Below are positions 3,101 through 35,399 of a stretch of 35,399 bases of DNA, piece by piece. Position 1 is the first letter of the stretch; each line of letters starts with the position of its first letter. Where the stretch lies: the IMG/VR virus record IMGVR_UViG_3300017769_000046, positions 1 to 35,399 of that record. One strand, 5' to 3'. Position numbers and translations under genes: made by a program. The notes beneath the pieces were generated by a model, which worked only from the letters and a program-made list of their open reading frames with translations, was not told the origin of the DNA and made no database searches. Source of the DNA: a virus.

Positions 3101-5854
3101 AAGTGTTCTGTATGTAACGTTTTTTCCTTGATCCCACATAAGGGCTACAGTGTTACTAGCACCCTCAGATATACCATTTAAATTTAGCGTATCTATAAAC
3201 GTAGTGGAAGGTATCTCTTGAACCTCAAGGTTATTAAACTCTACAGTTCCGTCATAAGCGATGTAACCTACACCACCCTCTGTAAATGTAGTGTCGTTTA
3301 TTTCACCATTGATAATCTGGTTTCCATCAATATCTACTCGTATCTTTTGACTAATGACTTGTACGGTAACTCTATGCCAGTTACCATCATCTATATCTAC
3401 ACCTGAAATAGCAGTACCATTAACGCCGCCTATAAGATAAGATTGACCTACATTAGTTTGTCTTTTCTGTACTCTTACCGTATTTGAACTGCGTATAATT
3501 ACATTGTAACCATCTTCTGATGGTGAGTTTTGACCATGATAAACTAACCCAAGATGAGTAGCGTTACTAGTCTTAAATGAGAAGGTAGCTATAAAGTTTT
3601 GGTGTTCAGCGTATGGTGTAGTAGCTGCATAAGAACTAGAGCTTTTAACAAACTTAACTGTCTTATCATCTATCCAAGTTGCTGTATAGTTACTACCTGA
3701 TTTTCTCCAACTAGCGTTACCGTTAGTATTTGTAAAAGAACCATCAATGTTTAGGTCATTTGATATATCTACATCACCTCCTGCTTCTATAGTAAGTCTT
3801 GAGGTATTATTAGTTGCGAAGACAAGGTTGCTGTTTTCACGATTCCAAAACACCGCACCTGTAGAGTCATCATACCCTATAGCAACACCATCCGTATCAT
3901 TAAGACCTGTTGCAGTAGTAGTAAACCTTGCTAAGGATAATGATGCTTTATTAATATGAAGTTTTTGAGTAGGAGCATTTAATCCAATACCTACATTTTG
4001 GTTACTTCTTAATATGGTTATAGCATCTAAATCATTTGCAGTATCTGAATCAGTGGCATCGTGCATACCCAAATGCAACTTATTAGCATCACCATCATAA
4101 TAAATATAACCACCCTGAAAGCCTGCGCTAGTAGATGAACCTTCTGTAAATCTTATTCTTCTGTTGCCTGTACCATTTACTGCTGTAGCATCTAAAAATA
4201 AATCACCACCTCTTAACTTTGTATCGCCAGTAAGAATACCACCTGACAATTCAAGATACCTGCTATCTAAGTCAACAGATGTTAAACCAGTAACATGACC
4301 GTAAGTATCTAGCGTTACGTCTTGAATAACTGAACCATTACTATTATCAACAGAAGCCTGAGAGCTGGTGTCAGAATGTGACAGTGTAACCGCCCCTGAT
4401 GTACCACCACCACCAAGACCTGCACCTGCTGTAACTCCAGTTATGTCACCAGCGCCAAACCCAGCATCATTATTAAAGACAGAAATATCTATCTCACTTA
4501 AAGCCTTTCTTTTATTGGTTATACCATCCAGTATAGCTATTTCATCTATGGCTGCTACGTCCTCTGTCATATCTACCAGTCTAGATATGTTTAATGATAG
4601 AGTAGCCACGCCACTTGTTGTACCCCCACTAAGCCCCGAAGTTGTGCTAGTCGCAATTTCAGTAATATCTCCTGCTGCTGACGCAGGCGGAATGTACTCA
4701 AACTGTTTATTAGTTTGATTGTAGCTTAAACTACCTGTACCACTAGCCGCACTTTGAACAACAAGGTTTGCCTTGTCAGGGACAAACTCATCAACTAAAT
4801 TCTTTGAATTTAAACCAGTAACATGACCATAGGTGTCTAGCGTCACATCTTGTATAACGGAAACGCCTGAATTATCTACAGATGATTGTGTACTTGTATC
4901 TGAATGGGTCAAGGTTACTGTGCCTGACGTTCCGCCACCACCAAGACCTGCACCTGCCGTAACGCCTGTGATTGTACCTACGTTTGATGTATAACCAAGA
5001 CCAGTAACATAAGATGCAATGGCTGAGCTAGTCATTATCATTGCATTACTAGAAACAAACCCTTCTGTACTGTCTAGCAACGTGGCGGCACTAAATTGTG
5101 ATGTTGTTAGCCCAGAAACATCAAGCGTAACTGCGCCACTTGTACCCCCACCAGTTAATCCTGTACCTGCCGTAACGCCTGTAATGTCTCCTGCGTTATT
5201 AGTATATCCTGCGCCATTAGTAATGTATTGATTGTCTAATGCCCCACCTTGACCTGTATATGTAGATAATGCAGTATTTTCAACGTTACCAATGCCTAAG
5301 CTAGTTAGTGCCGCAGAACCTGACTCAACACTACCATCTGCCTTCAAGAACTGAGATGAAGTACCGCCACTCTTTACTATTGAAGAACCAGTAATTACGC
5401 CACCACTTATGTTACCTGTGGATGTAAGCGCACCACTTACGTATAACGCATCATCTGTCTGCCATCTATCATTAGTCTCGTTCCATATAAACGATTTGGT
5501 AGCCCCAGTACCTCTTTTTACTTCTATACCAGCATTTTCTGTAGGATTAGTGGTGCTAGTTATGTCTGCATTTAGGGTTATTATAGAATCGCCAATATTG
5601 AGATGTTGCGAATTTATAAATGTGGTAGTTCCAGTGACAGTAAGGTTACCAGCAATAGTTAAGTCGCTAGTAAAAGAAACGGAGGTTGGTATATTGTTAA
5701 AGTCTTGTCTGAGTAATGGAAACCCAGCTTGAGTAGAGCCATCATGAACAACAAGAGTGTTTTTCGTTGTGTCTACTGTTATCTCTCCCTCAGCCCCAGT
5801 AAACGTGCTGTGCTGAGTGGTTGTACCTCTTCTACGTTTTACTTCTGTTGCCAT
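1..5854 (-). CDS. giant tail fibre protein, N-terminal 1951 codons (the ORF leaves the window at base 1 and continues at 35399)
   Basis: Absent from the ORF track because it has no stop on this side of the window. The reverse complement from the ATG at 5854-5852 reads MATEVKRRRGTTTQHSTFTGAEGEITVDTTKNTLVVHDGSTQAGFPLL, a conserved tail-fibre N-terminal motif resembling the Mtd N-terminal domain. I spot-checked the frame (plus-strand triplets starting at positions = 2 mod 3) on the lines starting 1, 1441, 2701, 3181, 3361 and 4501 and found no tta/cta/tca. Frame arithmetic through the overlap: 5854-121 = 5733 = 3 x 1911. Confidence 0.85.
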   Translation of the reverse strand, partial: MATEVKRRRGTTTQHSTFTGAEGEITVDTTKNTLVVHDGSTQAGFPLLRQDFNNIPTSVSFTSDLTIAGNLTVTGTTTFINSQHLNIGDSIITLNADITSTTNPTENAGIEVKRGTGATKSFIWNETNDRWQTDDALYVSGALTSTGNISGGVITGSSIVKSGGTSSQFLKADGSVESGSAALTSLGIGNVENTALSTYTGQGGALDNQYITNGAGYTNNAGDITGVTAGTGLTGGGTSGAVTLDVSGLTTSQFSAATLLDSTEGFVSSNAMIMTSSAIASYVTGLGYTSNVGTITGVTAGAGLGGGGTSGTVTLTHSDTSTQSSVDNSGVSVIQDVTLDTYGHVTGLNSKNLVDEFVPDKANLVVQSAASGTGSLSYNQTNKQFEYIPPASAAGDITEIATSTTSGLSGGTTSGVATLSLNISRLVDMTEDVAAIDEIAILDGITNKRKALSEIDISVFNNDAGFGAGDITGVTAGAGLGGGGTSGAVTLSHSDTSSQASVDNSNGSVIQDVTLDTYGHVTGLTSVDLDSRYLELSGGILTGDTKLRGGDLFLDATAVNGTGNRRIRFTEGSSTSAGFQGGYIYYDGDANKLHLGMHDATDSDTANDLDAITILRSNQNVGIGLNAPTQKLHINKASLSLARFTTTATGLNDTDGVAIGYDDSTGAVFWNRENSNLVFATNNTSRLTIEAGGDVDISNDLNIDGSFTNTNGNASWRKSGSNYTATWIDDKTVKFVKSSSSYAATTPYAEHQNFIATFSFKTSNATHLGLVYHGQNSPSEDGYNVIIRSSNTVRVQKRQTNVGQSYLIGGVNGTAISGVDIDDGNWHRVTVQVISQKIRVDIDGNQIINGEINDTTFTEGGVGYIAYDGTVEFNNLEVQEIPSTTFIDTLNLNGISEGASNTVALMWDQGKNVTYRTLGSNAFNSDTIPTASDFLPITGGTLTGQLTSADIIPNADDTEFLGGTANRWRVLYATRIRTDILREADGTNVLGMTSTTRDLYGLDGSVRISFEDNVAITNGNVGIGTTNPVGKLYVGPTWSTNYGGNNLYIKNTSVDNTDYDPKVTNTSTLGITMVTDSSTTTGPDTVGLTLYNDDNTAGGFSPMLLFAKRETGSTDYKASMAGIYARSPLGTGNSNNWIDGELIFATAGAASNGIKQRMVINKEGNVGIGTTNPVGKLHVKASSAGAGVVLKIENAGANGAAQLDLTNDAQSWFVNTRTDDKFSIYNNTASTTALTIDTSNNVGIGTDSPVNNTPLTLQAPSGYTDTLWLKSVGTNIASRINIGPTGTGNAQINNATGTDIEFQVSGSEKMRIDSSGTVLVGADSDTGTGAGHVLFANGASYQVRDGGFTALFKRLNSDGEILRFYKDSAQIGSIGTANGDLFIGTTNGSDQSYLRFAFGGVGIVPATSAGLANDNALDLGASGARFKDLYLGGDAYIGDALDVGGNVDIDGKLTLDPNSLTNGIINTPASLRINIDSNNNNTGEKFVIGHNQDSINNNNELFVVNESGNATLAGDITLGDGSSDHRTLTLQTNAEKNSIINFKESTSTYGFSIGYYGVANDFIIKRHDNSTNGTDVLTLFRENDNATFAGDVVAPLFETTGTGYLYLGGHVRLNNPGSGTFKIGQYNGSSWNDTLNITNDGNVGITGDVEFSGNTLISTDTSDGSDNAQIIISGGGASGDARGASIHASGNEHGNGGLLQLRAGSGTVSEIRSYTSGTERMRITSAGDVNFYGVSQNADMVWDRSAKSLGIGTTSPSQTLEVHNTIKIGETGVAGGRLISGDSMIFQIDSDNSSTSSSYRFRTNGTADDGTELMRIQENGNVGIGTASPFFTTSNRVSLSLNGTSSSILAFGKNGSSENYILADAGGLTIANTSDSLPTIFFNNASERLRIDSSGNITHSGTSPQYIFKTASNTNFQIAIQENVANALEITPSTTAGGTTFSNPALVVNSS

Positions 5855-22054: not shown

Positions 22055-22622
22055 AGTCTACCTCTATCGCCTCCATTCTTTGTGCAAACTCCTTCAGTTG
22101 ATCCATGTTTAGGAAGTCCTGAAGAACCTGCAACGTTTGTTCTCGCACCTTGTTTTTATACTCTATGATAATCGTTGGTTCATTACTCAACTCTTTACGA
22201 ACGTCATGTAAGTCTTTCATGATTTTACTCAAGTCCTTTGGGTGAATCGCATCCAAGTCTGGGTGATTCTCAAGCAGCGTAGTAATCTTTATCAGCATAA
22301 ACTCAACCTTAGCCGACATCTTCTCTTTTCGCTCCTCTAGCGTCCCAATGAACTGAAGAGTGTTACGGTACTGCTCAAGGTCTTTTAAGAGTTCTGGGTC
22401 AAATTTTGAGCGCTGCACGACATCCTTTGCTTGCTCACGTATCTTTATCTCTTCATCAAGGTTTGATCGTTGGTTTTTCCAATTGTAAATGGTTTGCCTT
22501 GACACACCCCATTTATCAGCCACTTTTGACACGTTACCCATCACCTTTATTTCCCTAAGGATGGCTACTTTCTCTTCAGGACTAAATTCGTTATTTCCAA
22601 CCTCTTTTTTTGACATACTCAA
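22041..22622 (-). CDS. small terminase-like protein: N-terminal HTH plus coiled coil (putative)
   Basis: 193 aa. HTH: VSKVADKWGVSRQTIYNWKNQ. It sits at the head of the packaging module. Confidence 0.5.
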   Translation of the reverse strand: MSMSKKEVGNNEFSPEEKVAILREIKVMGNVSKVADKWGVSRQTIYNWKNQRSNLDEEIKIREQAKDVVQRSKFDPELLKDLEQYRNTLQFIGTLEERKEKMSAKVEFMLIKITTLLENHPDLDAIHPKDLSKIMKDLHDVRKELSNEPTIIIEYKNKVREQTLQVLQDFLNMDQLKEFAQRMEAIEVDYELI

Positions 22623-22764
22623 CTACTGATTCTATGCGATTAAATATATAATTAGGCAACTTATCAGACATAGAGGGGATCTCATAAAGACTCATTATGA
22701 TAATCTTTATCTCCTCCGCTAACTCTTCCTTGGTTAATATGTTTTTCTTTTTATGCCAACCCAT
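22591..22764 (-). CDS. hypothetical protein, first gene of the late operon
   Basis: The track starts at a TTG (22773); the first ATG gives MGWHKKKNILTKEELAEEIK... Confidence 0.4.
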   Translation of the reverse strand: MGWHKKKNILTKEELAEEIKIIIMSLYEIPSMSDKLPNYIFNRIESVVEYVKKRGWK

Positions 22765-22922
22765 TTTACACAAACTTAATAAAATTGACAGACATTACTT
22801 ATAAATGGCGAGAATAGCAAATATTGACACTTTTTCATGGATTTTTGCTTTTCGCGAAAGGGAGGGTATTTAGCCCGTAGGCAAGTATATTTTAATATAT
22901 AAGCCCCTGTATAATATAATTT

Positions 22923-22965
22923 TCTAGTTCTATTATATAATATAAGAATCTAGTTTTATTATATA
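22923..22965. repeat. 17-bp direct repeat pair TCTAGTT(C/T)TATTATATA upstream of the late operon
   Basis: Copies at 22923-22939 and 22949-22965 with 1 mismatch, spaced 26 bp start to start, in the intergenic region. Confidence 0.7.
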
Positions 22966-22981
22966 GCTTTAAAGTATAGAC

Positions 22982-23015
22982 AAAAAAATAGCCCTGCATA
23001 TAATGCAAGGCTATA
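22982..23015 (-). terminator. rho-independent terminator closing the AT-rich cassette
   Basis: The minus strand reads ATAGCCTTGCAT-tat-ATGCAGGGCTAT (12-bp stem, one G.U pair) followed by TTTTTTT. Confidence 0.8.
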
Positions 23016-23043
23016 GGTTTAAAGTATATTTTAATTATATATT

Positions 23044-23337
23044 TTAATTGTCAAGTTTTACATAATCTGAAAGATCTAATCCAACATTATTTTGTTTTAT
23101 ATCCACACCTAAAAGTTGATTTATAGCTTCACTTATAAGAAAAAATTCGCGACTGTTAATCTTATTTTTAAGTTTATTATATGACATATTTTTTAAGTCA
23201 GATATACGATTTTCTGAAATACCTTTTTTATCTTTATCTATATTTTTACTTTTAGCAGATATAGATGTAGCTGTAATTAAACGTATATTAGTTTTTTCAC
23301 ATCTAAAATTGAGATAATATTCTATAAAATTTTTCAT
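23044..23337 (-). CDS. hypothetical protein, possible XRE-like HTH
   Basis: 97 aa, extremely AT-rich codons. GISENRISDLKN...LISEAINQLLGVD loosely resembles an XRE-type HTH. Confidence 0.45.
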   Translation of the reverse strand: MKNFIEYYLNFRCEKTNIRLITATSISAKSKNIDKDKKGISENRISDLKNMSYNKLKNKINSREFFLISEAINQLLGVDIKQNNVGLDLSDYVKLDN

Positions 23338-24068
23338 GCTGCTAACCTCATATTTTTAGATTTTAGTTTCTTAGCTTTTCTATAATCTTGGCTATATATT
23401 TTATATGGTATTTTATATAAATCTTTTTTAATAATTTTATAGGTATTATCATTTCTCATTACATTCCATAATGAAGCTTGAAATTCATAATAGTTTATAT
23501 CATATTTTTCAATAAAAGGTATAGCAATAATTTTCATAATGGTTTCTAAATCTTCATATACTCCTACATTATTTAATTTAGTTTTCCATATATCATTATT
23601 TTTAAATAAAGCTTTCATTATATGTGTATCTATAGTTATATAATTATTATCTAATAAAAGATTCCTATAAAAACTATATGTTTTTTTAGCTTTATTTCTA
23701 GCTAAGAATATATCTTTACCTTCAAATAATGGTAAAGCTTTTTTCCAATTATCACGTGATTGCCATTTTCTATGTTTATCTAAATCTATTTTTATACCTT
23801 TCTTTACAAGTTTAAGTATACGATAAACTTCATCTACATTTCTAGAGTATTTTGTATTGGATGAAAATACAGAAAACAATTGAGCTGTTTTATCAATATC
23901 TAAGAATTCGTATTCTTTATGTATATCTTTAATTAAATTATTATTATCAATATACCATTGTTTACCGTATTCAATATCTTCTATAGTTAGAAATCCTAAA
24001 GAATGTATAAGATTAGATTTAATTAGTTTTCTATGATTAGGTATAAAAGTTATATATAGTTTTTTCAT
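23334..24068 (-). CDS. hypothetical protein (largest gene of the AT-rich cassette)
   Basis: 244 aa, K/N/I/Y-rich. The blocks GKQWY, FSVFSSNTKYSRNV and KKTYSFYRNLLLDNNYITIDTH recall a conserved phage family of unknown function (WY...S(P/S)...W..N...K..sFY.N...(V/I)TID(R/T)H), from memory only. Confidence 0.55.
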   Translation of the reverse strand: MKKLYITFIPNHRKLIKSNLIHSLGFLTIEDIEYGKQWYIDNNNLIKDIHKEYEFLDIDKTAQLFSVFSSNTKYSRNVDEVYRILKLVKKGIKIDLDKHRKWQSRDNWKKALPLFEGKDIFLARNKAKKTYSFYRNLLLDNNYITIDTHIMKALFKNNDIWKTKLNNVGVYEDLETIMKIIAIPFIEKYDINYYEFQASLWNVMRNDNTYKIIKKDLYKIPYKIYSQDYRKAKKLKSKNMRLAA

Positions 24069-24087
24069 ATTATTGTATATTTTAAGT

Positions 24088-24306
24088 TTATATTTTATAA
24101 GTTAGTAGATATTTAGTATTATTTTCTAAATCGCTTTTCCTAATTATTTCATTTTTACCTATAAGGTAGTATCTATCAAAGTGTGAAATAATTGATTCAC
24201 GAACTGCTATATTATTAATATCATATTTTAAATCGAATGTATTAATAATAAAATCTATTTTAATTTTATCTGTATTTTCCATGTTATTATATATTTGAGT
24301 TTTCAT
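24088..24306 (-). CDS. hypothetical protein
   Basis: 72-aa ORF in the AT-rich cassette, overlapping the upstream ORF by 20 nt. Confidence 0.45.
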   Translation of the reverse strand: MKTQIYNNMENTDKIKIDFIINTFDLKYDINNIAVRESIISHFDRYYLIGKNEIIRKSDLENNTKYLLTYKI

Positions 24307-24535
24307 TAATTAGTTGATAGTATTTTTCATTCGTACTATCAATTATTTCTATACGGTTTAATCTAAACTTTCGTATAGCAAAATTTAGTTCATATAATTC
24401 ATTGCCACATATAGGACAACCTTCAATCCATTTTATATCCGAAAATATATTTTTTTCTGTATCTATCGATATAATATGTTCTTCATCCAAATCTATATTA
24501 CAACTTGGACAATAACTTTGTATTTCATTATACAT
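24287..24535 (-). CDS. zinc-ribbon protein (CxxC...CxxC)
   Basis: 82 aa with YCPSCNIDL ... GCPICGNELY. Confidence 0.5.
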   Translation of the reverse strand: MYNEIQSYCPSCNIDLDEEHIISIDTEKNIFSDIKWIEGCPICGNELYELNFAIRKFRLNRIEIIDSTNEKYYQLINENSNI

Positions 24536-24536
24536 A

Positions 24537-24644
24537 TTATTATCTATTTATAAGATGAATAAAAATATGCATTCCAAAGTATAGAAAGGTAAAACTCATA
24601 AATGTAATAAAACATATATGATATAATCGTTCGAATTTTTTCAT
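24537..24644 (-). CDS. small hydrophobic peptide (35 aa), not in the track
   Basis: Hand translation: MKKFERLYHICFITFMSFTFLYFGMHIFIHLINR. Its TAA lies 1 nt before the next ATG (TAATATG). The upstream 22 nt (ATAAACTAAAATATATAATAAC) closely resemble those before the 23334..24068 gene (TAAACTTAAAATATACAATAAT). Confidence 0.4.
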
Positions 24645-24893
24645 GTTATTATATATTTTAGTTTATATTTTAAGGCCTATTTTTTGCCTTGTTTTTCAGT
24701 ACTATAATATAACACTAATTAACTAAAATACAAAATACTAAATACAGTATTTTCAATAATATACACTAAAATGATTATTAATATACACCTTATATTATAC
24801 AAAAAAGCAACTAGCTATATTATATATTAAAATATATTTTTAAAGTATATAATTAGTAAAAATCCATTTTAAGGGTACGTAAAAATTTGGCAT

Positions 24894-24924
24894 AAAAAAA
24901 CCCTACACAACTCAATGTATAGGG
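24894..24924 (-). terminator. rho-independent terminator ending the leftward early operon
   Basis: The minus strand reads CCCTATACA-TTGAGT-TGTGTAGGG (9-bp stem, one G.U pair) followed by TTTTTTT. Confidence 0.8.
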
Positions 24925-24947
24925 CTTATAACTTTAACGGATAATTT

Positions 24948-25163
24948 TTATTTTGGTTCCTTATAAGGGTAATAGGCAACGTCATCACCGTTTGCTAGTC
25001 TTAGAATTGACTCATTAGACAAGGAAACTCTTATAGATTCAAAATTTATATGGCTAGTCAGTTCAATAAATATTTTACCGTCTTTATATATATATTCCAT
25101 TTCCAAAAAATTGAGTCTATTTATACATTTTTCTATGTCATTAATTGTTACTTTCTTATACAT
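24948..25163 (-). CDS. hypothetical protein
   Basis: 71-aa ORF, overlaps the upstream gene and is followed by a terminator. Confidence 0.5.
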   Translation of the reverse strand: MYKKVTINDIEKCINRLNFLEMEYIYKDGKIFIELTSHINFESIRVSLSNESILRLANGDDVAYYPYKEPK

Positions 25164-25435
25164 TTTTTACCCTCTCTTTTTGATTCTTGACTAGGAGTAT
25201 AACTACTAAATACCCACTCCATGTCTTGATGAAGTATTTTTATTTTTTCTTTATGACTCTTAGTTCCATCTTCAATAAGATTTATTAAGAACATCACCGA
25301 ATCAATAGGATCGTCAGATTGCTCGAGCATCCAATTAACGTAAAATAATTTTGTGATTACATCTGGGACACGATCTTTTTTTTCTTTTATATATGGTTGT
25401 ATGAAATGTGATTGTATTTCTGCTTGTATATTCAT
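25148..25435 (-). CDS. hypothetical protein
   Basis: 95-aa ORF in the leftward early operon. Confidence 0.5.
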   Translation of the reverse strand: MNIQAEIQSHFIQPYIKEKKDRVPDVITKLFYVNWMLEQSDDPIDSVMFLINLIEDGTKSHKEKIKILHQDMEWVFSSYTPSQESKREGKKCIRK

Positions 25436-25439
25436 GTTA

Positions 25440-25715
25440 TTAACCTCTTACTGTGTATGTGTTGCCATTTGCTTTCACCTTGGTTAAGGAGTGTGCATTT
25501 ATTGTTCGATACTGTGCCTTATACATATCGAATGCTACTATATACCCATTCTCACTAGGGTTATACGACATGGAACCACCTCTTAAGTGTTTTTTAACAC
25601 CTAATCTAGCTACCATGTTTCTTTGTGTGCCATCCTTTTTTTTGAAGCTAACACTAAATATTGAGTTATTCTGACTTTGTAATAGGTTATATGCTTGTTG
25701 CTTATTGATTGTCAT
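25440..25715 (-). CDS. small beta-barrel protein (DUF2693/WYL_2-like, tentative)
   Basis: 91 aa. IFSVSFKKKDGTQRNMVARLGV... resembles the v.F.KKDG..R.m pattern of that family (from memory). Confidence 0.5.
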   Translation of the reverse strand: MTINKQQAYNLLQSQNNSIFSVSFKKKDGTQRNMVARLGVKKHLRGGSMSYNPSENGYIVAFDMYKAQYRTINAHSLTKVKANGNTYTVRG

Positions 25716-25765
25716 AATTCATCATGTTTTGTTATTGTTATTTTAGAACACAAGTAATATATGAC

Positions 25766-25774
25766 TTATCCACA
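25766..25774 (+). promoter_or_regulatory. perfect DnaA box TTATCCACA
   Basis: Read directly (gacTTATCCACAttaa), in the intergenic region between the O-like replication gene and the next gene. Confidence 0.6.
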
Positions 25775-25805
25775 TTAAAACAAAAAAAAACTTGTCTTGT
25801 TGTTA

Positions 25806-26234
25806 TTAATCCTCGTATTCTCTGTAGTCTATCAAACCACCTAATATAGGAGAAGAATCTTGTCGTGGTTTGTATGTATTGTTATTGTATTGTTGTGTGT
25901 TAAATTTCTTTACCACTTGAGGTAAAATTTCTTTACCATGGGGTAAAATTTCTTTACCCAACATTAGCTTAATTTTGGTGGTTCTGTTGTGTCGTTTTTT
26001 AGTAGAAATCAATCCAATTTTTTCTAGGTTCGATAATGATTTAATGATAGTTGGTTTGCTATAATTAGTCATCCCACAAATTTGAGAAACAGAAATTCTG
26101 TCCTCTGTCTTGTTCCAACCCCAAGTCTTTCTAATGATGGCTAATAGTACTAAAAATTCATTATGACTAAGTTCTTTCATGTACTTATCGAAAATTGAAT
26201 TTGGTATTGGTATAAATCCTTCTTGCTCAAGCAT
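25806..26234 (-). CDS. replication initiator, phage lambda O-like N-terminal (wHTH) domain protein
   Basis: FIPIPNSIFDKYMKELSHNEFLVLLAIIRKTWGWNKTEDRISVSQICGMTNYSKPTIIKSLSNLEKIGLI matches the Phage_rep_O pattern (...RkTyGwnK..d.IS.sQ...TG.s...v..al..L). Only 142 aa. Confidence 0.75.
   Translation of the reverse strand: MLEQEGFIPIPNSIFDKYMKELSHNEFLVLLAIIRKTWGWNKTEDRISVSQICGMTNYSKPTIIKSLSNLEKIGLISTKKRHNRTTKIKLMLGKEILPHGKEILPQVVKKFNTQQYNNNTYKPRQDSSPILGGLIDYREYED
25899..25958. repeat. iterons inside the O-like gene: 2 perfect and 1 imperfect copy of GGTAAAATTTCTTTACC (candidate origin)
   Basis: Perfect copies at 25921-25937 and 25942-25958 (21-bp period) and an imperfect copy, gtTAAATTTCTTTACC, ending at 25914. 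Each unit has inverted arms GGTAAA/TTTACC. They encode GKEILPHGKEILP. Confidence 0.7.
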
Positions 26235-26252
26235 GCATAAAAATTAATTTTG
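26223..26252 (+). promoter_or_regulatory. candidate Bacteroidota-type promoter (TTG-N19-TAATTTTG) for the rightward early operon
   Basis: TTG at 26223-26225, a 19-nt spacer, then TAATTTTG at 26245-26252. This matches the -33 TTG / -7 TAnnTTTG consensus described for Bacteroides and Flavobacterium. Confidence 0.4.
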
Positions 26253-26258
26253 TGATTA

Positions 26259-26267
26259 TGTGGAAAA
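26259..26267 (-). promoter_or_regulatory. DnaA-box-like site (TTTTCCACA, 1 mismatch) at the predicted early transcription start
   Basis: The plus strand reads tgtggaaaa, in the divergent promoter region next to the O-like gene. Confidence 0.35.
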
Positions 26268-26315
26268 CTACTAAATTGGATTCACTTAAACAAAAATTAA
26301 TGGAGGTTGACCAAT

Positions 26316-26576
26316 ATGCCCAAGAATATTTGGAACTATCGAATAATGATAGATGACCATGGTGGTAAAAATAAAGTCACATACAGTGTACATGAAGTAT
26401 ATTATGCCAAAGATGGGTCACCAGAGGACTACACCAAGATGCCCGAAACGATGCTTTCGGATGACTTGGAGGAAATCTTTTGGTGTCTAGAACACTACAT
26501 CAAAGCCTTCGCTTTGCCAATGATAAGTATACCAAACTTTCCTAAGGAGGTACCGTTACATGAAAATTTTCAGTAG
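26316..26576 (+). CDS. hypothetical early protein
   Basis: The track starts at a TTG (26307). The ATG at 26316 is preceded by GGAGG (26302-26306) at a 9-nt spacing. Confidence 0.55.
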   Translation: MPKNIWNYRIMIDDHGGKNKVTYSVHEVYYAKDGSPEDYTKMPETMLSDDLEEIFWCLEHYIKAFALPMISIPNFPKEVPLHENFQ

Positions 26577-27411
26577 TATGTCTAACCATGACTATCATGA
26601 GCATGGATCAGACTATATATCTAGCAGCTTTGTTAAGAGCGTAGCGAAACACTCAATCGCTAAAGCCCTGCAACCAATCGAGGCTAGTCAAGCGCTCATA
26701 TTTGGTGATGCCATGCATACCTACTTTGAGTCCAAGACAGACTTCCATAGTAGGTTCGTTACATTCGATGATAGAGAGGTCATATCTTCGATTAGAGAGG
26801 CTCGACCTGAAATTACGGCTCCTAGTATGACTAAAGAATACAAGGCGTTTAGGAGGGAATTTGAGAAGGGAGTTGATAGTGACCAAACAATCATTTCGTT
26901 GCATGACGTTGAGCGTATCGAGCATATGTTTAATAGCGTAAAGAAGAATAAGGCCGTAGCGGAAATTAATGAACTCTACGAGTACAATGCGATTTGGGAT
27001 GAGTATTCATTCTTTAGTGATGAGTCTTTCCAAAAATTTAGGCCATTAAACTTCAGGGTTCGGCCTGACAAGATGCTCGTCCAAGACGAAAATCCAATGG
27101 CCATCATAGATTGGAAGTCATGTAAGGATGCTAGTAAAAATGCATTTCGTTCTGACTTCTTTCGTTATAGATATGATATACAGGCTACTTTTTATTGTAT
27201 GGTTCTGGGCTTAGAATATTCCGACTTTTATTTTGTTGCAATTGAAAAAGAGTATCCATATAATAGTGCCGTATACACGCTTAGCTATGACACGTATACC
27301 AAGGCAGCAAATGACATGACAACTGCCCTAGTGCAGATAGCCGAATGGAAGGATCACCCCAACGACTCTTCTATAGGTATTTTAAACCAAAACACAATAA
27401 CAGAGTTATAA
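26560..27411 (+). CDS. PD-(D/E)XK exonuclease (DUF3799 / RecE-like exonuclease VIII family)
   Basis: SNHDYHEHGSDYISSSFVKS resembles the N-terminal ..YH....iS.S.lk signature, and IIDWKSCKDAS resembles D-x-K-type core motifs. It is paired with an ERF annealase downstream. Confidence 0.7.
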   Translation: MKIFSSMSNHDYHEHGSDYISSSFVKSVAKHSIAKALQPIEASQALIFGDAMHTYFESKTDFHSRFVTFDDREVISSIREARPEITAPSMTKEYKAFRREFEKGVDSDQTIISLHDVERIEHMFNSVKKNKAVAEINELYEYNAIWDEYSFFSDESFQKFRPLNFRVRPDKMLVQDENPMAIIDWKSCKDASKNAFRSDFFRYRYDIQATFYCMVLGLEYSDFYFVAIEKEYPYNSAVYTLSYDTYTKAANDMTTALVQIAEWKDHPNDSSIGILNQNTITEL

Positions 27412-27412
27412 T

Positions 27413-27616
27413 ATGGACATACTTAAATTCTATATAACATTTACTAGCCACCTTAATTCACAAAGAATGGTGTATGAACAGAAGATAATAAATGAACAAG
27501 ACAAAGAGGCACCTGATTATCATGAGCTGGCTGCATATGAGGCTAAAAAAGAGCAGACAGACGAAATTCACAGAATGTTTCTTGATGACGTAAATAAAAT
27601 ATTAATCCAACAATAA
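27413..27616 (+). CDS. hypothetical acidic protein
   Basis: 67-aa ORF tightly packed between the exonuclease and the annealase. Confidence 0.45.
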   Translation: MDILKFYITFTSHLNSQRMVYEQKIINEQDKEAPDYHELAAYEAKKEQTDEIHRMFLDDVNKILIQQ

Positions 27617-27623
27617 CAGAACT

Positions 27624-28064
27624 ATGAAAAACCTATACACAAAACTATTAGATGTAACTAGCAAAATTGAAAAGCTAGAGAAGGACAAGAAGAACCCATT
27701 CTTTAAGTCATCCTATGTAAGCCTAGACAAGGTGATAGATGTAGTAAGGCCACACCTACTTGCCGAAAAATTATTATTGATACAACCAATCGAGCAGGGT
27801 TGTGTGGGTACAAGGATTATCTGCACTGAGTCCAACAAGTCTATTGATTCATTTATACCACTGCCTGAAAATGTAAAGCCTCAAGACTTAGGTTCTTGTA
27901 TAACTTACTTTCGTAGATATACACTCGTATCACTTTTGGGTCTTTCTCAAGAGGATGACGATGGGAATAAGGCTCATGGCAGGGCTAACCCACCTAAAAA
28001 GAAAGTGCCTGCACGTGCTAGAGACATGAAGGATGCGATGTTAGACGAAAAATTTCCGTTTTGA
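27624..28064 (+). CDS. erf: ERF-family single-strand annealing protein
   Basis: LYTKLLDVTSKIEKLEKDKKNPFFKSSYVSLDKVIDVVRPHLLAEKL... and ITYFRRYTLVSLLGLSQEDDDG fit the ERF pattern (..Y.sL..v......l...gl / Y.rRY.l..l.G....DDD). Confidence 0.7.
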   Translation: MKNLYTKLLDVTSKIEKLEKDKKNPFFKSSYVSLDKVIDVVRPHLLAEKLLLIQPIEQGCVGTRIICTESNKSIDSFIPLPENVKPQDLGSCITYFRRYTLVSLLGLSQEDDDGNKAHGRANPPKKKVPARARDMKDAMLDEKFPF

Positions 28065-28147
28065 TCACCTCCGTAGCAGTAGCCCTCATTATCATTTCGG
28101 TGGTAGTGGGGGCTTCTTTGTCTTATGAAAGAGGGCAATAGAACGCT

Positions 28148-28555
28148 ATGAGCAGAGCCAAGGGTAGGAGAACAATACGTAAAGCTATAGCCTATCTAGA
28201 GGATCAAGGTATGTTGGTAGATGAGGTAGAGATGGGTGGCCGTTACAATTTGTATAAAGACCTGTTTGCAGGGTATTGTACGAAGTGTTGGGTCAAGAAG
28301 TGTGAACACCAAGACAAGTTCCGATTTGAGGGGTTTGATTTAATTGCGCTGTCTGATAAGTGTGTATATTTTATACAGGTAAAAACCAACACACCACCTG
28401 CGAGAAAAAACTATATTCGTTTTGCTAAAAAGTTTGCTAGTAAATATATTAGCGTCTTGTCCATGACTTGGTATGACCGAAGGGGATGGGTGTTTCATAG
28501 GTTTACTAGGCTAGGAGACGTAACTAAAAAAGATTTAAGAAAAAACAATAAATGA
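28148..28555 (+). CDS. Hjc-like PD-(D/E)XK Holliday-junction resolvase (putative)
   Basis: AKGRRTIRKAIAYLEDQGMLV ... GFDLIALSDKCVYFIQVKT has the shape of a D...(E/Q)xK core. It sits in the recombination module. Confidence 0.5.
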   Translation: MSRAKGRRTIRKAIAYLEDQGMLVDEVEMGGRYNLYKDLFAGYCTKCWVKKCEHQDKFRFEGFDLIALSDKCVYFIQVKTNTPPARKNYIRFAKKFASKYISVLSMTWYDRRGWVFHRFTRLGDVTKKDLRKNNK

Positions 28556-28794
28556 GAAGAAAAATGACTCCCAACGAGCAAAGTATAGTAAGATTGATAA
28601 AGAACAGTACAAAGCCAATAACCTATCCCGACATAGAAAAGGTTATGACTTTTGATCCTCGTAAGGAAAAGTATTGGTCTGTATTTTCCACCGTATCTTC
28701 GCTCGTAGAGTCAGGAATAATAACAATAACAAAACATCCTAGCACATATTCATTAACCAAGTATGGTAGGATGAAGTATGAACAGATAACATGA
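28552..28794 (+). CDS. winged-helix DNA-binding protein (putative)
   Basis: 80 aa. ITYPDIEKVM...VSSLVESGIITITKHPSTYSLTKYG looks like a wHTH. ATGA overlaps at both ends. Confidence 0.45.
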   Translation: MRRKMTPNEQSIVRLIKNSTKPITYPDIEKVMTFDPRKEKYWSVFSTVSSLVESGIITITKHPSTYSLTKYGRMKYEQIT

Positions 28795-30029
28795 ACCACT
28801 TACATTTAGAGGAGTGTTTAATTGGCACCCTTTTAAACCACATTGAATATAGAGACTTAATATTTGACATAACCGATAAAGACCATTTCCCAAACAGATA
28901 CCCAATATATCTAGAAGCCTGCAGGCAACATGGTGAGGGAATGCAGTTTGATGCTGAAACTATTAGTGCGAATGTCAAGGAGTATCCATACACTCAAATA
29001 CTTGAGATGCAGATGCATGGGATTCCTAGTGAGCAAAAAATTAAGTCTTATGTATACGCATTAAAGGAGCAGAGAGACCGAAGGTTACTTAGGGACTCTA
29101 TCGCCAAGACATATCACTTCTCTCAGAAGGAGGATATTACTACAGATGACTTGTTAATGCATATATCTAAACTGTCTGATGATACCGATGAAACTGGTGA
29201 CTCAGGAGCCTTAACACCTGCCCAGATATTTGAGCGAGAACTTAATAATCCAATCAAGGAAAAATTAACGACTAATATCTCATTAATAGACAACAATATT
29301 TATAAAGATGTGGGCTTGCATAAGGGTGACATTAACGTAATACTTGCAGACTCTGGTCATGGTAAGACTCAGTTCTCTCTATTTTTAGCATCTCAGTTAT
29401 TGAATAGTGGACACGTTGGCCTATGGTTTCAGATGGAAGATTATGATGTCAATACGGCCAAACAGATTGCCCTAAACGCTATGGATCACTGTGAAAAAAT
29501 GTTTATTGTGGATGATAAGGATGACATAGATGAGATAAAAAGGATATGCAAGCTAGTGAAGCAGGAACATGGCTTAGATTTTGTTGTTATAGACTATATA
29601 CAGGAGGTGTATGCTAAGGGGAGGTTTGATTCTAGAACCCTAGAATTAAACTATGTCACTAAAATCATTAAGCAAATAGCTAAGGAGGTTAATGTTGTGG
29701 TGTTAGTTCCTAGTCAAGTAACTATAAATGATCACGTAAGGAATGGTTGGCAACTAGAGCCTAGGTATAAGGACGCGCAATGGGCGCAAGTTATCAAGAA
29801 TGTGGCTCACTGTATGACCTCAGTATTTAGGCCATCTATGGTTCAATCATTGGTGGTTGATAATGGAATTGGTAAAAAAGTTTCTGGTTGGAGCGAGGAT
29901 CAAAGGTTTGACTACAACAGTGTGTTTGTGAAGATTGTTAAGTCAAGAAGGGGTATGATAACCCACGAAAGAATGCAACTCAACCATAACGGAGACAAAG
30001 GACTTGAGATAGCTAAACAGATGTTTTAG
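28791..30029 (+). CDS. DnaB-like replicative helicase
   Basis: N-terminal LEECLIGTLLNH (DnaB-N-like), Walker A LADSGHGKTQFSL, Walker B FVVIDYIQ, 412 aa. Confidence 0.85.
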   Translation: MNHLHLEECLIGTLLNHIEYRDLIFDITDKDHFPNRYPIYLEACRQHGEGMQFDAETISANVKEYPYTQILEMQMHGIPSEQKIKSYVYALKEQRDRRLLRDSIAKTYHFSQKEDITTDDLLMHISKLSDDTDETGDSGALTPAQIFERELNNPIKEKLTTNISLIDNNIYKDVGLHKGDINVILADSGHGKTQFSLFLASQLLNSGHVGLWFQMEDYDVNTAKQIALNAMDHCEKMFIVDDKDDIDEIKRICKLVKQEHGLDFVVIDYIQEVYAKGRFDSRTLELNYVTKIIKQIAKEVNVVVLVPSQVTINDHVRNGWQLEPRYKDAQWAQVIKNVAHCMTSVFRPSMVQSLVVDNGIGKKVSGWSEDQRFDYNSVFVKIVKSRRGMITHERMQLNHNGDKGLEIAKQMF

Positions 30030-31276: not shown

Positions 31277-31465
31277 ATGACTTGGACTTGGTTAAAAGCA
31301 CGACTAAAAGAACCCTCCACCTATCAAGGTGTAACCGCTATAGCTGGAGCCATCGGTGTCAGCATTCAGCCTGACCTATATGAATCTATCGCAGCGCTGA
31401 TGGTTGCAATTATTGGTGTAATTCAAACTATTAAAAAAGAGAAAAAAGAGGATGAAAAGCCTTGA
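31277..31465 (+). CDS. holin (class-II-like); the frame is open from 31085 with alternative starts at 31085 and 31235
   Basis: MTWTWLKARLKEPSTYQGVTAIAGAIGVSIQPDLYESIAALMVAIIGVIQTIKKEKKEDEKP has two hydrophobic segments and a charged tail, and sits directly after the endolysin. The upstream in-frame part is low-complexity and basic, so it may be non-coding. Confidence 0.6.
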   Translation: MTWTWLKARLKEPSTYQGVTAIAGAIGVSIQPDLYESIAALMVAIIGVIQTIKKEKKEDEKP

Positions 31466-31489
31466 CTAATTGATTAGACTTGGTTAGAT

Positions 31490-31498
31490 TTATCCACA
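31490..31498 (+). promoter_or_regulatory. perfect DnaA box TTATCCACA upstream of the DnaA-domain-IV gene
   Basis: Read directly (gatTTATCCACAgtc), intergenic. Confidence 0.6.
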
Positions 31499-31554
31499 GT
31501 CTTAAGGATAGGGTTTTTTTTAGTAGAATTTTCCCTTATCTGATGCGAGCATCA

Positions 31555-31596
31555 GCCCCCCAGTGCTAGACTGCTTAGTGGGGGGCATTTTTTTTA
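31555..31596 (+). terminator. GC-stem hairpin plus T8 (terminator or leader attenuator)
   Basis: GCCCCCC-(18 nt)-GGGGGGC followed by ATTTTTTTT. It lies between the holin and the ATG at 31623. The track GTG start at 31563 falls inside this hairpin. Confidence 0.65.
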
Positions 31597-31622
31597 TTAA
31601 TACAATAACAAAAAGGATACAT

Positions 31623-33108: not shown

Positions 33109-35399
33109 TTAACCTGTTCTGTATGTTATTTGAAAAATTAAATCGTTTGAGTTTGAAGAACTACTTGTATCTGTTGGACTTAAATTTGAGATATTAGAAG
33201 TAGTTGATGAGTGATAATACAAATATATTCTTTCAGTTCCATGTATGGCTAACATCTTTGGCTCTTCGCCACCAAATGCAGTAGAATACCCAATAGCGCC
33301 TGCATAAAAACTAGGTCCTGAAAGGATGTCTGTTACGGTAAAAGGTATTCCATCAACATATACCGCACCTGAAGAACTAGACCATGAAAGACCACTTGTT
33401 TCTATACGACCCCACAAGTGAACAACGTTTCCAACTTTTATATATCTACCTGCTGTTACAGATGTATATGTAACATTTGTAACTGTTGCTGAAGAAGAAG
33501 AGTATGTTGGTGTCCAAGAGCCTTCTTCATAGTCATCAAGGGCATTGGCAGCTGCTGTATCTCCATTGAAAGTGATACCACCACTTGATAAGATGCGTAC
33601 CTTCTCTGAACCACCGACTTGCCAAATTATATTAGCAGAACTCTGCGTTGCGTTCTGAATGATGTCGGCAGAACTACCTATACGAAATATGTCGTAACAA
33701 TTTGATACGTCATATCCTACCCTTAATCTAGCTGAACCACCACTACTATTATTTAATACATTTATCGCAGTTGCACTAGATTGATTTTTTATAATCTCTA
33801 ATGTAGCACTAGGACTATTTGTACCAATACCTACGTTACCTTGAAAGTTAATATTTAAAGGTGTAGCACCCCCACCATATCCACCTAGCCCTAAATATCC
33901 TACTCCATCTGCTAAAATGTGAAAGTAATCTCCACCTATAAAATCACCATTAGAACCATCTAAGAATATTGCGGCTCCATTATTATACTCTTGTAGAGTG
34001 ATAGAACTACTACCATCACTAACTTCAAATTTTGCTACAGGACTAGTAGTACCAATCCCTACGTTACCACCTGCTTGAATAGTGAACTGGTCACCAACGC
34101 CATTTTCATGTAACGCAAAGTCACCATTAGTATATGACTTTAACCACCATTGATTTACATTTGAACTATCATTAAGTCCTATTTTATAATCAGTACTACT
34201 CTTAAAATACACCTGACCGCTTGAGTCAATGCGCATACGTTCAGTATTATTGGTAGCAAATCTTAAATATCCATTTTTATAGTTCCAAAATTCTGCATTT
34301 GTACTGTCAGGGCTACCTATTATAAAGTTTGCATTGTCGGATGAATCATATCCAGCAAGTTGCGTTCTACTATTACTAGTGGTTTCTAGTTTTAAAATAT
34401 TTGTGCCTGCTTTTATATGAAGTGGATAGTTGGGATTCGTTTCGCCAATACCTACTTTACCGTCATTTGTGAAACGAACCATTTCACCATTATCTGACTT
34501 ATAAAACTTAAATGTTCCTGCATCAGTTATGCTTAATTTATCTGCTCCACTTCCGTTAGCAACCTTAAAAGCAAAGTTTGAATCAGAAGTCCCACTTGAA
34601 CGAATGCCTAGCTTTATATTTGAGCCAAGTGATGCCCCAATACTTACGTTACCATCACCCTGTATGGTTAATCTAGTAGCTAAACCCCCATTATATGGCT
34701 TTGTTTTAAACTGAAGCTCTCCTGCGGCAGTAGCTAAAGTTCCTTCTTTTTGAGCAGTGATACTAGAAACTATTGCGTCACCTGAATCAGCTGCATTGGT
34801 AAAGTTAATAGCACCAATGTCTGCTTGCGTACCAGCCACGCTATAACCAGTCATTCTTAATACTGCTTGAGATGCAGAATTGGTTACACCTGATACTCTA
34901 GCTGTCGTAGTTGAACCCCCTGAGTTTAAGTCTAAAGTATAATCAGGGGCTGGGTTACCTATACCTAATCTAGTCTCACTAGAATCAAAGTGAAAGTTTT
35001 CTACTTGACTAACACTTCTAAAAGCAACGTCACCATTTGAATGGATGCGCATACGTTCTGAACCGCCTGCGTATATTATTTGATTGACTCCGCTTCCACC
35101 GTAATAAATCATGTCTTCACTAGCGTCAAGTTGGATGTAAGACACTTGACTTCCAGCATTATGGAATCTTACAGATGCGTAACCTCCACCATCCTTTTCA
35201 ATAACTAAATCACTTGAAGTCCCCGCATCCAAATGTAAAGTACCATCTATGGATGATGTACCAATACCTACGTTACCACTTGAGTTTACGACTAAAGCAG
35301 GATTGCTAAAAGTAGTGCCACCTGCCGTTGTTGATGGTGTAATTTCAAGAGCATTTGCAACGTTTTCTTGTATGGCAATTTGAAAATTAGTATTAGATG
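33109..35399 (-). CDS. giant tail fibre protein, C-terminal part (same ORF as 1..5854; total (5854+2168)/3 = 2674 codons including the stop)
   Basis: The track ORF 33109..35232 only begins at the first in-window Met; the frame stays open up to 35399. It contains repeated ...MRI(D/H)S(S/N)G(N/D)V.. GNVGIGT modules. The C-terminus reads DDYEEGSWTPTY...GRYIKVGNVVHLWGRI, a motif I recognise from phage fibre receptor-binding tips. Confidence 0.85.
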   Translation of the reverse strand, partial: SNTNFQIAIQENVANALEITPSTTAGGTTFSNPALVVNSSGNVGIGTSSIDGTLHLDAGTSSDLVIEKDGGGYASVRFHNAGSQVSYIQLDASEDMIYYGGSGVNQIIYAGGSERMRIHSNGDVAFRSVSQVENFHFDSSETRLGIGNPAPDYTLDLNSGGSTTTARVSGVTNSASQAVLRMTGYSVAGTQADIGAINFTNAADSGDAIVSSITAQKEGTLATAAGELQFKTKPYNGGLATRLTIQGDGNVSIGASLGSNIKLGIRSSGTSDSNFAFKVANGSGADKLSITDAGTFKFYKSDNGEMVRFTNDGKVGIGETNPNYPLHIKAGTNILKLETTSNSRTQLAGYDSSDNANFIIGSPDSTNAEFWNYKNGYLRFATNNTERMRIDSSGQVYFKSSTDYKIGLNDSSNVNQWWLKSYTNGDFALHENGVGDQFTIQAGGNVGIGTTSPVAKFEVSDGSSSITLQEYNNGAAIFLDGSNGDFIGGDYFHILADGVGYLGLGGYGGGATPLNINFQGNVGIGTNSPSATLEIIKNQSSATAINVLNNSSGGSARLRVGYDVSNCYDIFRIGSSADIIQNATQSSANIIWQVGGSEKVRILSSGGITFNGDTAAANALDDYEEGSWTPTYSSSSATVTNVTYTSVTAGRYIKVGNVVHLWGRIETSGLSWSSSSGAVYVDGIPFTVTDILSGPSFYAGAIGYSTAFGGEEPKMLAIHGTERIYLYYHSSTTSNISNLSPTDTSSSSNSNDLIFQITYRTG
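35277..35399. repeat. terminal direct repeat copy 2 (identical to 1-123)
   Basis: Same 123-nt string as the window start. It lies inside an open reading frame, so it is more likely an assembly overlap of a circular or permuted genome than a functional DTR. Confidence 0.95.

Follow-up and report, generated by a model that had tools for sequence, protein, structure and literature searches.

The origins of lambdoid phages lie in the middle of the initiator gene O and consist of iterons and an AT-rich tract; three iterons suffice for growth of lambda, and two iterons combined with this tract are the least that unwinding requires (PMC7466680). DnaA stimulates pR, which activates ori-lambda, and also footprints boxes downstream of pO (PMC7466680, PMC3985674). 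In the annotation of the GenBank lambda record, from which the lambda iterons used here were taken, gene O contains four iterons of 18 bp (39034-39118), spaced by 20, 24 and 23 bp. Their core, TCCCTC-AAAAC-GAGGGA, is a 6-5-6 dyad, the array starts at codon 117, and the tract that follows the iterons is A-rich (ACACAAAAGACAC...AAAAAAGAAAAG). Here, a putative origin of this kind is described in a viral sequence of IMG/VR (record IMGVR_UViG_3300017769_000046), the whole 35,399 nucleotides of which are referred to as the window. It comprises a short O-like initiator gene (mini-O) with three iterons inside it, an A/C-rich block directly after the iterons, and a DnaA box on each side of the gene. 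We put the probability that this region is the phage's lambda-type replication origin at about 0.75, judging from comparative sequence evidence. The first 123 nt of the window are identical to its last 123 nt (1-123 and 35277-35399), which means that the window represents a complete genome of ~35,276 bp, assembled as a circle or with terminal redundancy.

The locus shares several features with lambda, and also with the Stx phages 933W and P27. The initiators have a homologous winged-helix domain for origin binding at the N-terminus. Within the initiator gene, the iterons come immediately after the stretch coding for this domain; each is a 6-5-6 dyad centred on an A-tract, the spacing is ~21-24 bp, and an A-rich, G-poor tract follows the array. 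DnaA-box-bearing promoters (candidate promoters in the window) surround the origin. It differs from lambda in having three iterons instead of four to six, an initiator of 142 aa instead of 299 aa that has no C-terminal domain, no P-like loader gene but a DnaB-like helicase of its own, an initiator gene that is divergent from the rest of the replication module, and a post-iteron tract that is A/C-rich and not especially unstable. The C-terminal domain of lambda O binds lambda P.

Other described systems resemble the locus in part. In phage P22, gene 18 encodes an O-like initiator with the origin inside the gene, and gene 12 encodes a phage DnaB-type helicase. The window likewise pairs an O-like initiator with a phage DnaB-like helicase and not with a lambda-P-type loader, a layout that is also seen in one relative described below (L161); both the L161 protein and P22 gp18 are of full length and include a C-terminal domain, whereas the window's protein ends ~30 residues after the origin sequence. 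Iteron plasmids (pSC101, RK2, P1, F) combine iterons for a winged-helix initiator with an A/T-rich segment and DnaA boxes, as the window does. In these plasmids, the Rep protein has a pair of winged-helix domains and the iterons are found outside rep, whereas the window has one winged helix, iterons inside the gene and boxes within candidate promoters; neither two tandem winged helices nor iterons outside the initiator gene were found for mini-O. Bacillus phage SPP1 undergoes oriL-dependent theta replication (PMC5737612). As in the window, the SPP1 origin oriL lies inside the gene of the origin-binding protein (gene 38, G38P). The G38P initiator family differs from that of mini-O. A lambda-type origin is a known kind of origin, and the departures seen here are a minimal initiator without a recruiting domain, eight exchangeable specificity cassettes, and boxes in three candidate promoters together with a stand-alone DnaA domain-IV protein.

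The initiator and its iterons

Residues 5-82 of mini-O match the Pfam family Phage_rep_O (PF04492) with an E value of 2.4e-16 and 60.4 bits (family cut-off, 28.7 bits), and the protein matches PHROG 'replication initiation O-like' families. In BLASTP, residues 5-56 are 43% identical to residues 27-79 of lambda O (E 8e-12). The Pfam and PHROG matches bear out a preliminary description of the window, made from the letters of the DNA without database searches, in which the gene product had been called a 142-aa lambda-O-like initiator. An AlphaFold2 (AF2) model built on 24 relatives predicts a single winged helix-turn-helix at residues ~10-92, with helices at 24-37, 49-56 and 60-73 (the last being the recognition helix) and a wing at 76-90. 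Residues 95-142 have a predicted local distance difference test score (pLDDT) of <50 in this model and form a predicted disordered tail, which ends in the conserved motif ILGGL..EYED. Foldseek returned the winged helices of MarR, CodY, TubR and the plasmid RepA N-terminus, and a PDB sequence search with mini-O gave no match with E <0.09.

The same description had called the gene truncated, which proved to be wrong. Relatives with complete open reading frames (ORFs) all encode 125-150 aa and have a common C-terminal motif, ..(I/V)LGGL..(EYED, FEDS or MDD). Mini-O is therefore not truncated, and 125-150 aa is the native length of its family. The short form is nevertheless in the minority: among the 150 best cluster representatives at 50% identity, 20 have fewer than 160 aa, whereas most of the set has 200-350 aa. 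The helicase-recruiting C-terminal domain of lambda O was not found in mini-O, which stops at residue 142. A split gene, with the WYL_2 gene or another ORF supplying the missing domain, was considered and rejected, because comparing the C-terminal parts of 12 full-length relatives with the window gave no match.

On the gene strand, the iteron unit is the 17-bp GGTAAA-GAAAT-TTTACC, and the array begins at codon 93. On the plus strand the unit reads GGTAAAATTTCTTTACC, present twice, and an imperfect third copy reads TGTTAAATTTCTTTACC; the starts are 23 and 21 bp apart (Table 1). The array is the top tandem repeat of the window (Tandem Repeats Finder score 91, period 21), and the perfect GGTAAA-N5-TTTACC dyad occurs in the window at these two places only. 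The iterons fall in a coding segment with pLDDT <50, just after the coding part of the winged-helix domain. Given an alignment offset of 22 residues, codon 93 here and codon 117 in lambda are the same relative position. Two of the features expected of a lambda-type origin are therefore present, a Phage_rep_O domain and, where three or more dyad repeats of ~17-19 bp would be looked for, three of 17 bp, about two helical turns apart and 3' of the domain's coding part. The repeat coordinates of the preliminary description (two perfect copies with a 21-bp period and an imperfect copy ending at 25914) were exact, and its reading of them as iterons for a lambda-O-like initiator, placed inside the initiator's own gene as in ori-lambda, is supported by their position, 6-5-6 geometry and spacing.

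Iterons 1 and 2 encode GKEILP, and iteron 3 is read in another phase as VVKKFN. Because the third copy is read in another frame, the repeats appear to exist, and to act, at the level of DNA and not of the peptide. This is seen more widely in a comparison set of 30 related loci (22 of them distinct) from IMG/VR, ENA, JGI and NCBI. Three repeats are found at the same place (codons ~92-113) in every one of these loci, spaced by 21 or 33 bp and then by 23 or 24 bp, and once the relatives are counted the repeats are far beyond chance. They fall into eight sequence classes, in six of which the third copy is out of frame.

Among the 22 distinct genes, the eight repeat classes correspond one-to-one to a motif at the start of the recognition helix. 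The window's class pairs the helix SKPTIIK with the iteron core GGTAAAGAAATTTTACC. The other pairs are SNRT(V/I)ID with GTGAAAAATTTTCAC, TNKTIIN with GTGGAAAATTTACAC, CTNKTIIS with GTGGAATTTTTACAC, GKNTVIR with TACCCAAAATGGGTA, SKNTVIN with GGTTCAAAATTTGCACC, SRQTIVN with GTCTAAATTCTAGAC, and C(D/G)KTVVR with GGGGACAAATTT... Distances between helix segments correlate with distances between iteron segments (Mantel r 0.83, p 2e-4), and this correlation persists when N-terminal and tail distances are controlled (partial r 0.81); tail and iteron distances are not correlated (r 0.08). Mosaic relatives are also present: the window and L012 have near-identical flanks and a different cassette, and the window and L008 have the same cassette and a different N-terminus and tail. 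The wing is invariant, and an AAATTT-like centre is common to all repeat classes, which suggests that the wing contacts the iteron centre and that the recognition helix contacts the arms.

The same pairing recurs in a distant relative. L161 encodes a full-length 257-aa O-like protein with the helix motif SRPTIIG; its gene lies between a gene for single-stranded DNA-binding protein, upstream, and a DnaB-like helicase gene that comes directly after it (1501-3602). This locus carries GGTAAAGAAATTTTACC twice, 17/17 identical to the window's unit, and two further iterons, GGTAAAGATTCTTTACC and GGTTAAAAATTTTAACC, making four in all of the window's class. The domain-coding parts of L161 and the window are 45% identical in amino acids, 49% in nucleotides and 20% at third positions, so that third codon positions are saturated. 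L161 is the strongest single test of whether the protein reads the repeats as DNA sites, and it shows what looks like the same helix-iteron specificity in both long and short initiators. Directly behind the domain, three or four repeats are likewise present in other distant full-length relatives (L077 and L080), and this placement is therefore the rule in the family. The match of eight repeat classes to helix motifs, and the identical 17-mer in L161 beside a similar helix, thus add to the support for an ori-lambda-like arrangement.

In lambda, the iterons are followed by an A-rich tract; in the window, they are directly followed by a conserved A/C-rich block. The block is 69% A+T, its only G is the one at the 3' end, and on the gene strand it overlaps 43 consecutive nt that are free of G. 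In the 10 loci that carry the block, 12/12 of its third codon positions are invariant, compared with 12/50 in codons 1-50 and 2/16 in the wing codons of mini-O. In the L004 and L012 classes, paired 1-nt differences shift the frame of most of the block (HTTIHNNT versus TQQYNNNT) and leave the DNA unchanged. Because third positions are invariant and two classes read the same DNA in another frame, the block is constrained as DNA. Its position makes it a candidate unwinding or loading region.

A short motif, ACAATAACAA, was also found to be frequent in the window. With at most one mismatch it occurs 16 times where 6.9 are expected, and none of 100 shuffles reaches 16. Sites include 25729-25738(-), 25879-25888(-), 27394-27403(+), 27610-27619(+), 28723-28732(+) and 31602-31611(+). 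Several copies precede start codons of early genes by 5-20 nt (WYL_2, ORF 27413, ERF and the domain-IV gene), and one lies inside the A/C-rich block. The motif may enhance translation independently of a Shine-Dalgarno sequence, or it may be a site in the DNA.

DnaA boxes, candidate promoters and the domain-IV protein

The DnaA box consensus was taken as the 9-bp TTATCCACA, with TTWTNCACA as its relaxed form. The consensus is matched perfectly 32 nt past the mini-O stop codon, at 25766-25774(+), and again at 31490-31498(+), and the box TTTTCCACA, at 26259-26267(-), fits the relaxed form. The two positions beside mini-O agree exactly with those first described. An argument had also been made from the number of boxes, and it held only in part. 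Two perfect boxes are indeed present where 0.38 are expected, but a composition-aware test is marginal (2 of 100 dinucleotide shuffles reach two) and the relaxed counts in the window are unremarkable, with 11 boxes at one mismatch or fewer versus 12.75 expected, and six matches to TTWTNCACA versus 5.35 expected. Neither clustering as in oriC nor an excess over composition was found in the window, where the boxes are single. The case for the boxes instead appears to rest on conservation. Both boxes that flank mini-O are invariant in every relative, including the group with 41-44% protein identity; the adjacent linkers of 3 nt and 4 nt differ between relatives, but the box itself stays the same and the -10 element retains TAnnTT.

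The boxes coincide with promoter-like elements (Table 1). The candidate rightward early promoter has the same architecture as the candidate leftward promoter at 25756-25783. The candidate mini-O promoter parallels TTGACT-17-TAGATT/TATCCACA at 31462-31498, upstream of the domain-IV gene, where the first base of the box is the last one of the -10 hexamer and the box covers the predicted start site. A box is present in the promoter of the domain-IV gene in 9/14 loci with protein identity of at least 44% and in 0/63 more distant loci, and this box is thus a feature of the close lineage only. In L016 and L017 it is inverted and lies in the promoter spacer (TTGACT-GTT-TGTGGATAA-TTAAT-TACATT). A consensus promoter and terminator scan of 25400-26700 found nothing above shuffled background, and no terminator was found by it between the mini-O and WYL_2 genes.

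Because the boxes have fixed positions inside three promoter-like elements, and because in lambda DnaA acts on promoters that activate ori-lambda, they are probably operators in three candidate promoters, controlling transcription around the origin. The boxes had initially been seen as the flanks of an origin. They are conserved, but from their fixed places inside promoter-like elements they are more likely operators than structural parts of the origin.

A different role for the boxes would be that of working origin parts as in pSC101, RK2 and P1, with host DnaA helping to open the DNA and bringing the helicase, thereby offsetting the absent C-terminal domain of the initiator. Iterons plus DnaA boxes are a known design of plasmid origins, mini-O has no recruiting domain, and the perfect box, invariant in all relatives, is ~90 nt from the A/C-rich block. 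However, each box is at the same distance from -35/-10-like hexamers in three separate elements, as fits operators, and one of the box-bearing elements is 5.5 kb away, before the domain-IV gene. There is, moreover, a single box per side and no cluster, counts in the window are not enriched under relaxed definitions, and the phage has its own DnaB-like helicase. We therefore consider a structural role for the boxes unlikely, if still worth bearing in mind.

If the boxes are operators, a reader may be encoded by the phage itself. The window has a gene for a stand-alone DnaA domain-IV protein, and this gene is found on the same contigs as the mini-O gene. When the protein is aligned to the DnaA structures 3pvp and 2hcb, the base-contact motifs of domain IV (ARQ and RKDHTTIMH) are seen to be kept, and the protein is a candidate reader of the DnaA boxes. 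A search of the literature on phage-encoded DnaA domain-IV proteins and marine O-like origins found nothing specific.

Stand-alone DnaA-domain-IV-like proteins are also encoded on >100 viral contigs of many sizes (IMG/VR, loci L081-L160). In the window, the domain-IV gene is directly preceded by a conserved promoter-like element and then a leader of ~100 nt (31462-31622, plus strand). In this leader, a hairpin that varies with compensatory changes (31503-31545) is accompanied by a sequence that does not vary, GCGAGCATCA, and by a strong terminator, GCCCCCCA..TGGGGGGC-T8 (31555-31597). The leader matches no Rfam family and may represent a small RNA or an attenuator.

Table 1 Positions of the origin-related features in the window.
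Feature	Position	Strand	Description
Candidate leftward promoter, WYL_2 operon	25756..25783	-	TTGTTT-TAA-TGTGGATAA-GTCA-TATATT; perfect box 25766-25774 in spacer
Mini-O initiator gene, 142 aa	25806..26234	-	Winged helix-turn-helix (predicted) and disordered tail
Conserved A/C-rich block	25863..25897	-	Gene strand CACAACAATACAATAACAATACATACAAACCACGA (core …ACACAACAATACAATAACAATACATACAAACCAC…), directly after the iterons
Iteron 3, imperfect	25898..25914	-	Gene strand GGTAAAGAAATTTAACA; start 23 bp after iteron 2, different codon phase
Iteron 2	25921..25937	-	Identical to iteron 1, start 21 bp later
Iteron 1	25942..25958	-	Gene strand GGTAAAGAAATTTTACC, 6-5-6 dyad; identical 17-mer in L161
Candidate rightward early promoter	26250..26277	+	TTGTGA-TTA-TGTGGAAAA-CTAC-TAAATT; box TTTTCCACA in spacer
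Candidate mini-O promoter	26265..26293	-	TTGTTT-17-TAGTTT; box 26259-26267 overlaps -10 and start site; read from alignment
DnaB-like replicative helicase gene	28791..30029	+	Pfam DnaB_C E 6e-19, DnaB N-terminal domain; PHROG 19
Promoter-like element upstream of domain-IV gene	31462..31498	+	TTGACT-17-TAGATT; second perfect box
DnaA domain-IV protein gene, 114 aa	31623..31967	+	Pfam Bac_DnaA_C E 9.4e-17

Genomic context

The gene order around the putative origin is conserved. In all relatives, the plus-strand arm carries the DnaB-like helicase gene, two small ORFs, the ERF annealase gene, the DUF3799/PD-(D/E)XK exonuclease gene and a small ORF. The mini-O gene is followed by the WYL_2 gene, and their transcription is divergent from that of the helicase/ERF/exonuclease arm, as it is in the relatives. 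Synteny of the DnaB-like helicase is kept in L004 and L005, and this enzyme is presumed to be the one loaded at the origin. The WYL_2 gene (25440-25715, minus strand) encodes a 91-aa Sm-like SH3 barrel and comes after mini-O in every related locus examined; its product is a candidate partner of an initiator that has no recruiting domain.

The relatives come from Tara and coastal metagenomes. When positions 24500-29000 (by blastn) and the capsid protein (by tblastn) were searched against 50,697 phage records for cultured relatives, no match was found, and the O-like protein matched only distant O proteins in phage records, from Acinetobacter, E. coli and Salmonella phages. A host search with genome contigs gave one irrelevant match to a metagenome-assembled genome, there are no tRNA genes in the window, and an Rfam scan matched no family.

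Next to the replication module is an AT-rich island (22600-25150), with a GC content of 0.23 versus 0.39 in the adjoining module, that contains small ORFs and a DUF7178 gene. Tandem repeats were found in it at 22910-22965 (26 bp x 2.2) and 23376-23447 (36 bp x 2.1). The equivalent arm in the relatives is less extreme, with a GC content of 0.28-0.34.

Origin function, alternatives and significance

By homology to lambda, initiation would begin with the binding of mini-O dimers to the three dyad 17-bp iterons, which lie in the part of the gene that codes for the disordered linker. The variable start of the recognition helix would read the outer arms, GGTAAA and TTTACC, and the invariant wing would probably contact the A/T-rich, AAATTT-like centre. 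With three sites about two helical turns apart, the dimers would lie on one face of the DNA and might form a small O-some, which would open the A/C-rich block, or hand it over, for loading of the phage DnaB-like helicase. The domain-IV protein, host DnaA or both may set transcription around and through the origin via the boxes. Since the C-terminal domain is absent, the helicase must be recruited in some other way: through the acidic tail, which is short and conserved (..ILGGL.D.EYED), through a further factor, or through transcription.

Several observations weigh against a lambda-type origin at this site, or against parts of the scheme above. Mini-O does not have the domain by which lambda O recruits P-DnaB, and no loader was identified in the window. 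The A/C-rich block does not stand out as easy to melt: among windows outside the AT-rich island, its 40-bp free energy ranks in the top 24%, and a scan of duplex stability found no outstanding minimum there, the least stable 40-mers nearby being the promoter regions. The helix codons and the iterons are only ~50-110 nt apart, and co-inheritance could therefore give part of their covariation. In a 125-aa subgroup (L046-L050) the repeats are weak, with ~2.5 gapped copies. No domain-IV gene is found on the contigs of this distant subgroup, which keep the boxes; these contigs are incomplete, and the absence is not decisive. The three candidate promoters each score 8/12 against the sigma-70 consensus and are not listed by the consensus scan. 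Finally, the cumulative GC skew, proposed earlier as a check, does have its minimum near the candidate origin, at ~25.5-26 kb, but this is exactly where gene orientation switches from minus to plus. The skew is confounded with gene orientation, and it was rejected as independent evidence for the origin.

Some of these points would be accounted for if the repeats were mini-O binding sites with a regulatory role, such as an autoregulatory roadblock in the protein's own gene or a centromere-like site, and the origin were elsewhere, for example at the 26-bp repeats in the AT-rich intergenic sequence at 22910-22965. The protein is a winged helix with a disordered tail and has no helicase-recruiting domain, Foldseek places it near transcription regulators and the centromere-binding TubR, the region of 23% GC holds other tandem repeats, and the A/C-rich block is not thermodynamically weak. 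However, the domain is specifically the origin-binding domain of lambda O, and the position of the sites, the geometry of the unit, the spacing and the A-rich tract that follows all copy ori-lambda. Full-length O-like relatives beside DnaB-like genes share the arrangement, down to the same 17-mer in L161. In addition, no TubZ or ParA partner was found among the ORFs scanned, and the gene lies within a replication-recombination module. A purely regulatory array is thus quite improbable.

It could also be proposed that slippage in a tolerant, disordered linker merely duplicated a peptide (GKEILP-H-GKEILP) without any function in the DNA, since copies 1 and 2 are in frame, 21 bp (seven codons) apart and in a segment predicted to be disordered, but this has next to no likelihood, being already contradicted by the out-of-frame third copy, by the match of helix and iteron in eight lineages that each hold three homogenised copies of their own sequence, and by the 17-mer that L161 keeps identical despite saturated synonymous sites, and every unit is, besides, a dyad.

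A lambda-type origin read by mini-O may be part of a broader scheme of control, which we put forward tentatively. Its first layer would be the minimal initiator, with exchangeable helix-iteron cassettes of at least eight specificities. Its second layer would be the domain-IV protein, which as a mimic of DnaA would read single boxes in three phage promoters (two that bracket the origin and its own) and would thereby time transcription through the origin. The domain-IV protein might, on this two-layer scheme, also occupy boxes of the host oriC. No two-layer control of this kind was found in the literature searched.

For a group of marine phages that is abundant but uncultured, these results offer an origin and an initiator that can be tested. 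They also supply a natural panel in which an otherwise near-identical scaffold carries eight recognition helices, each matched to its DNA site; it would be useful for studying how O-type winged-helix proteins read DNA. Here the origin-binding half of lambda O appears as a complete protein, which raises the question of how a helicase is recruited without the C-terminal domain. The promoter-embedded boxes and the phage domain-IV protein, in turn, point to a possible viral use of the host initiator code for gene control.

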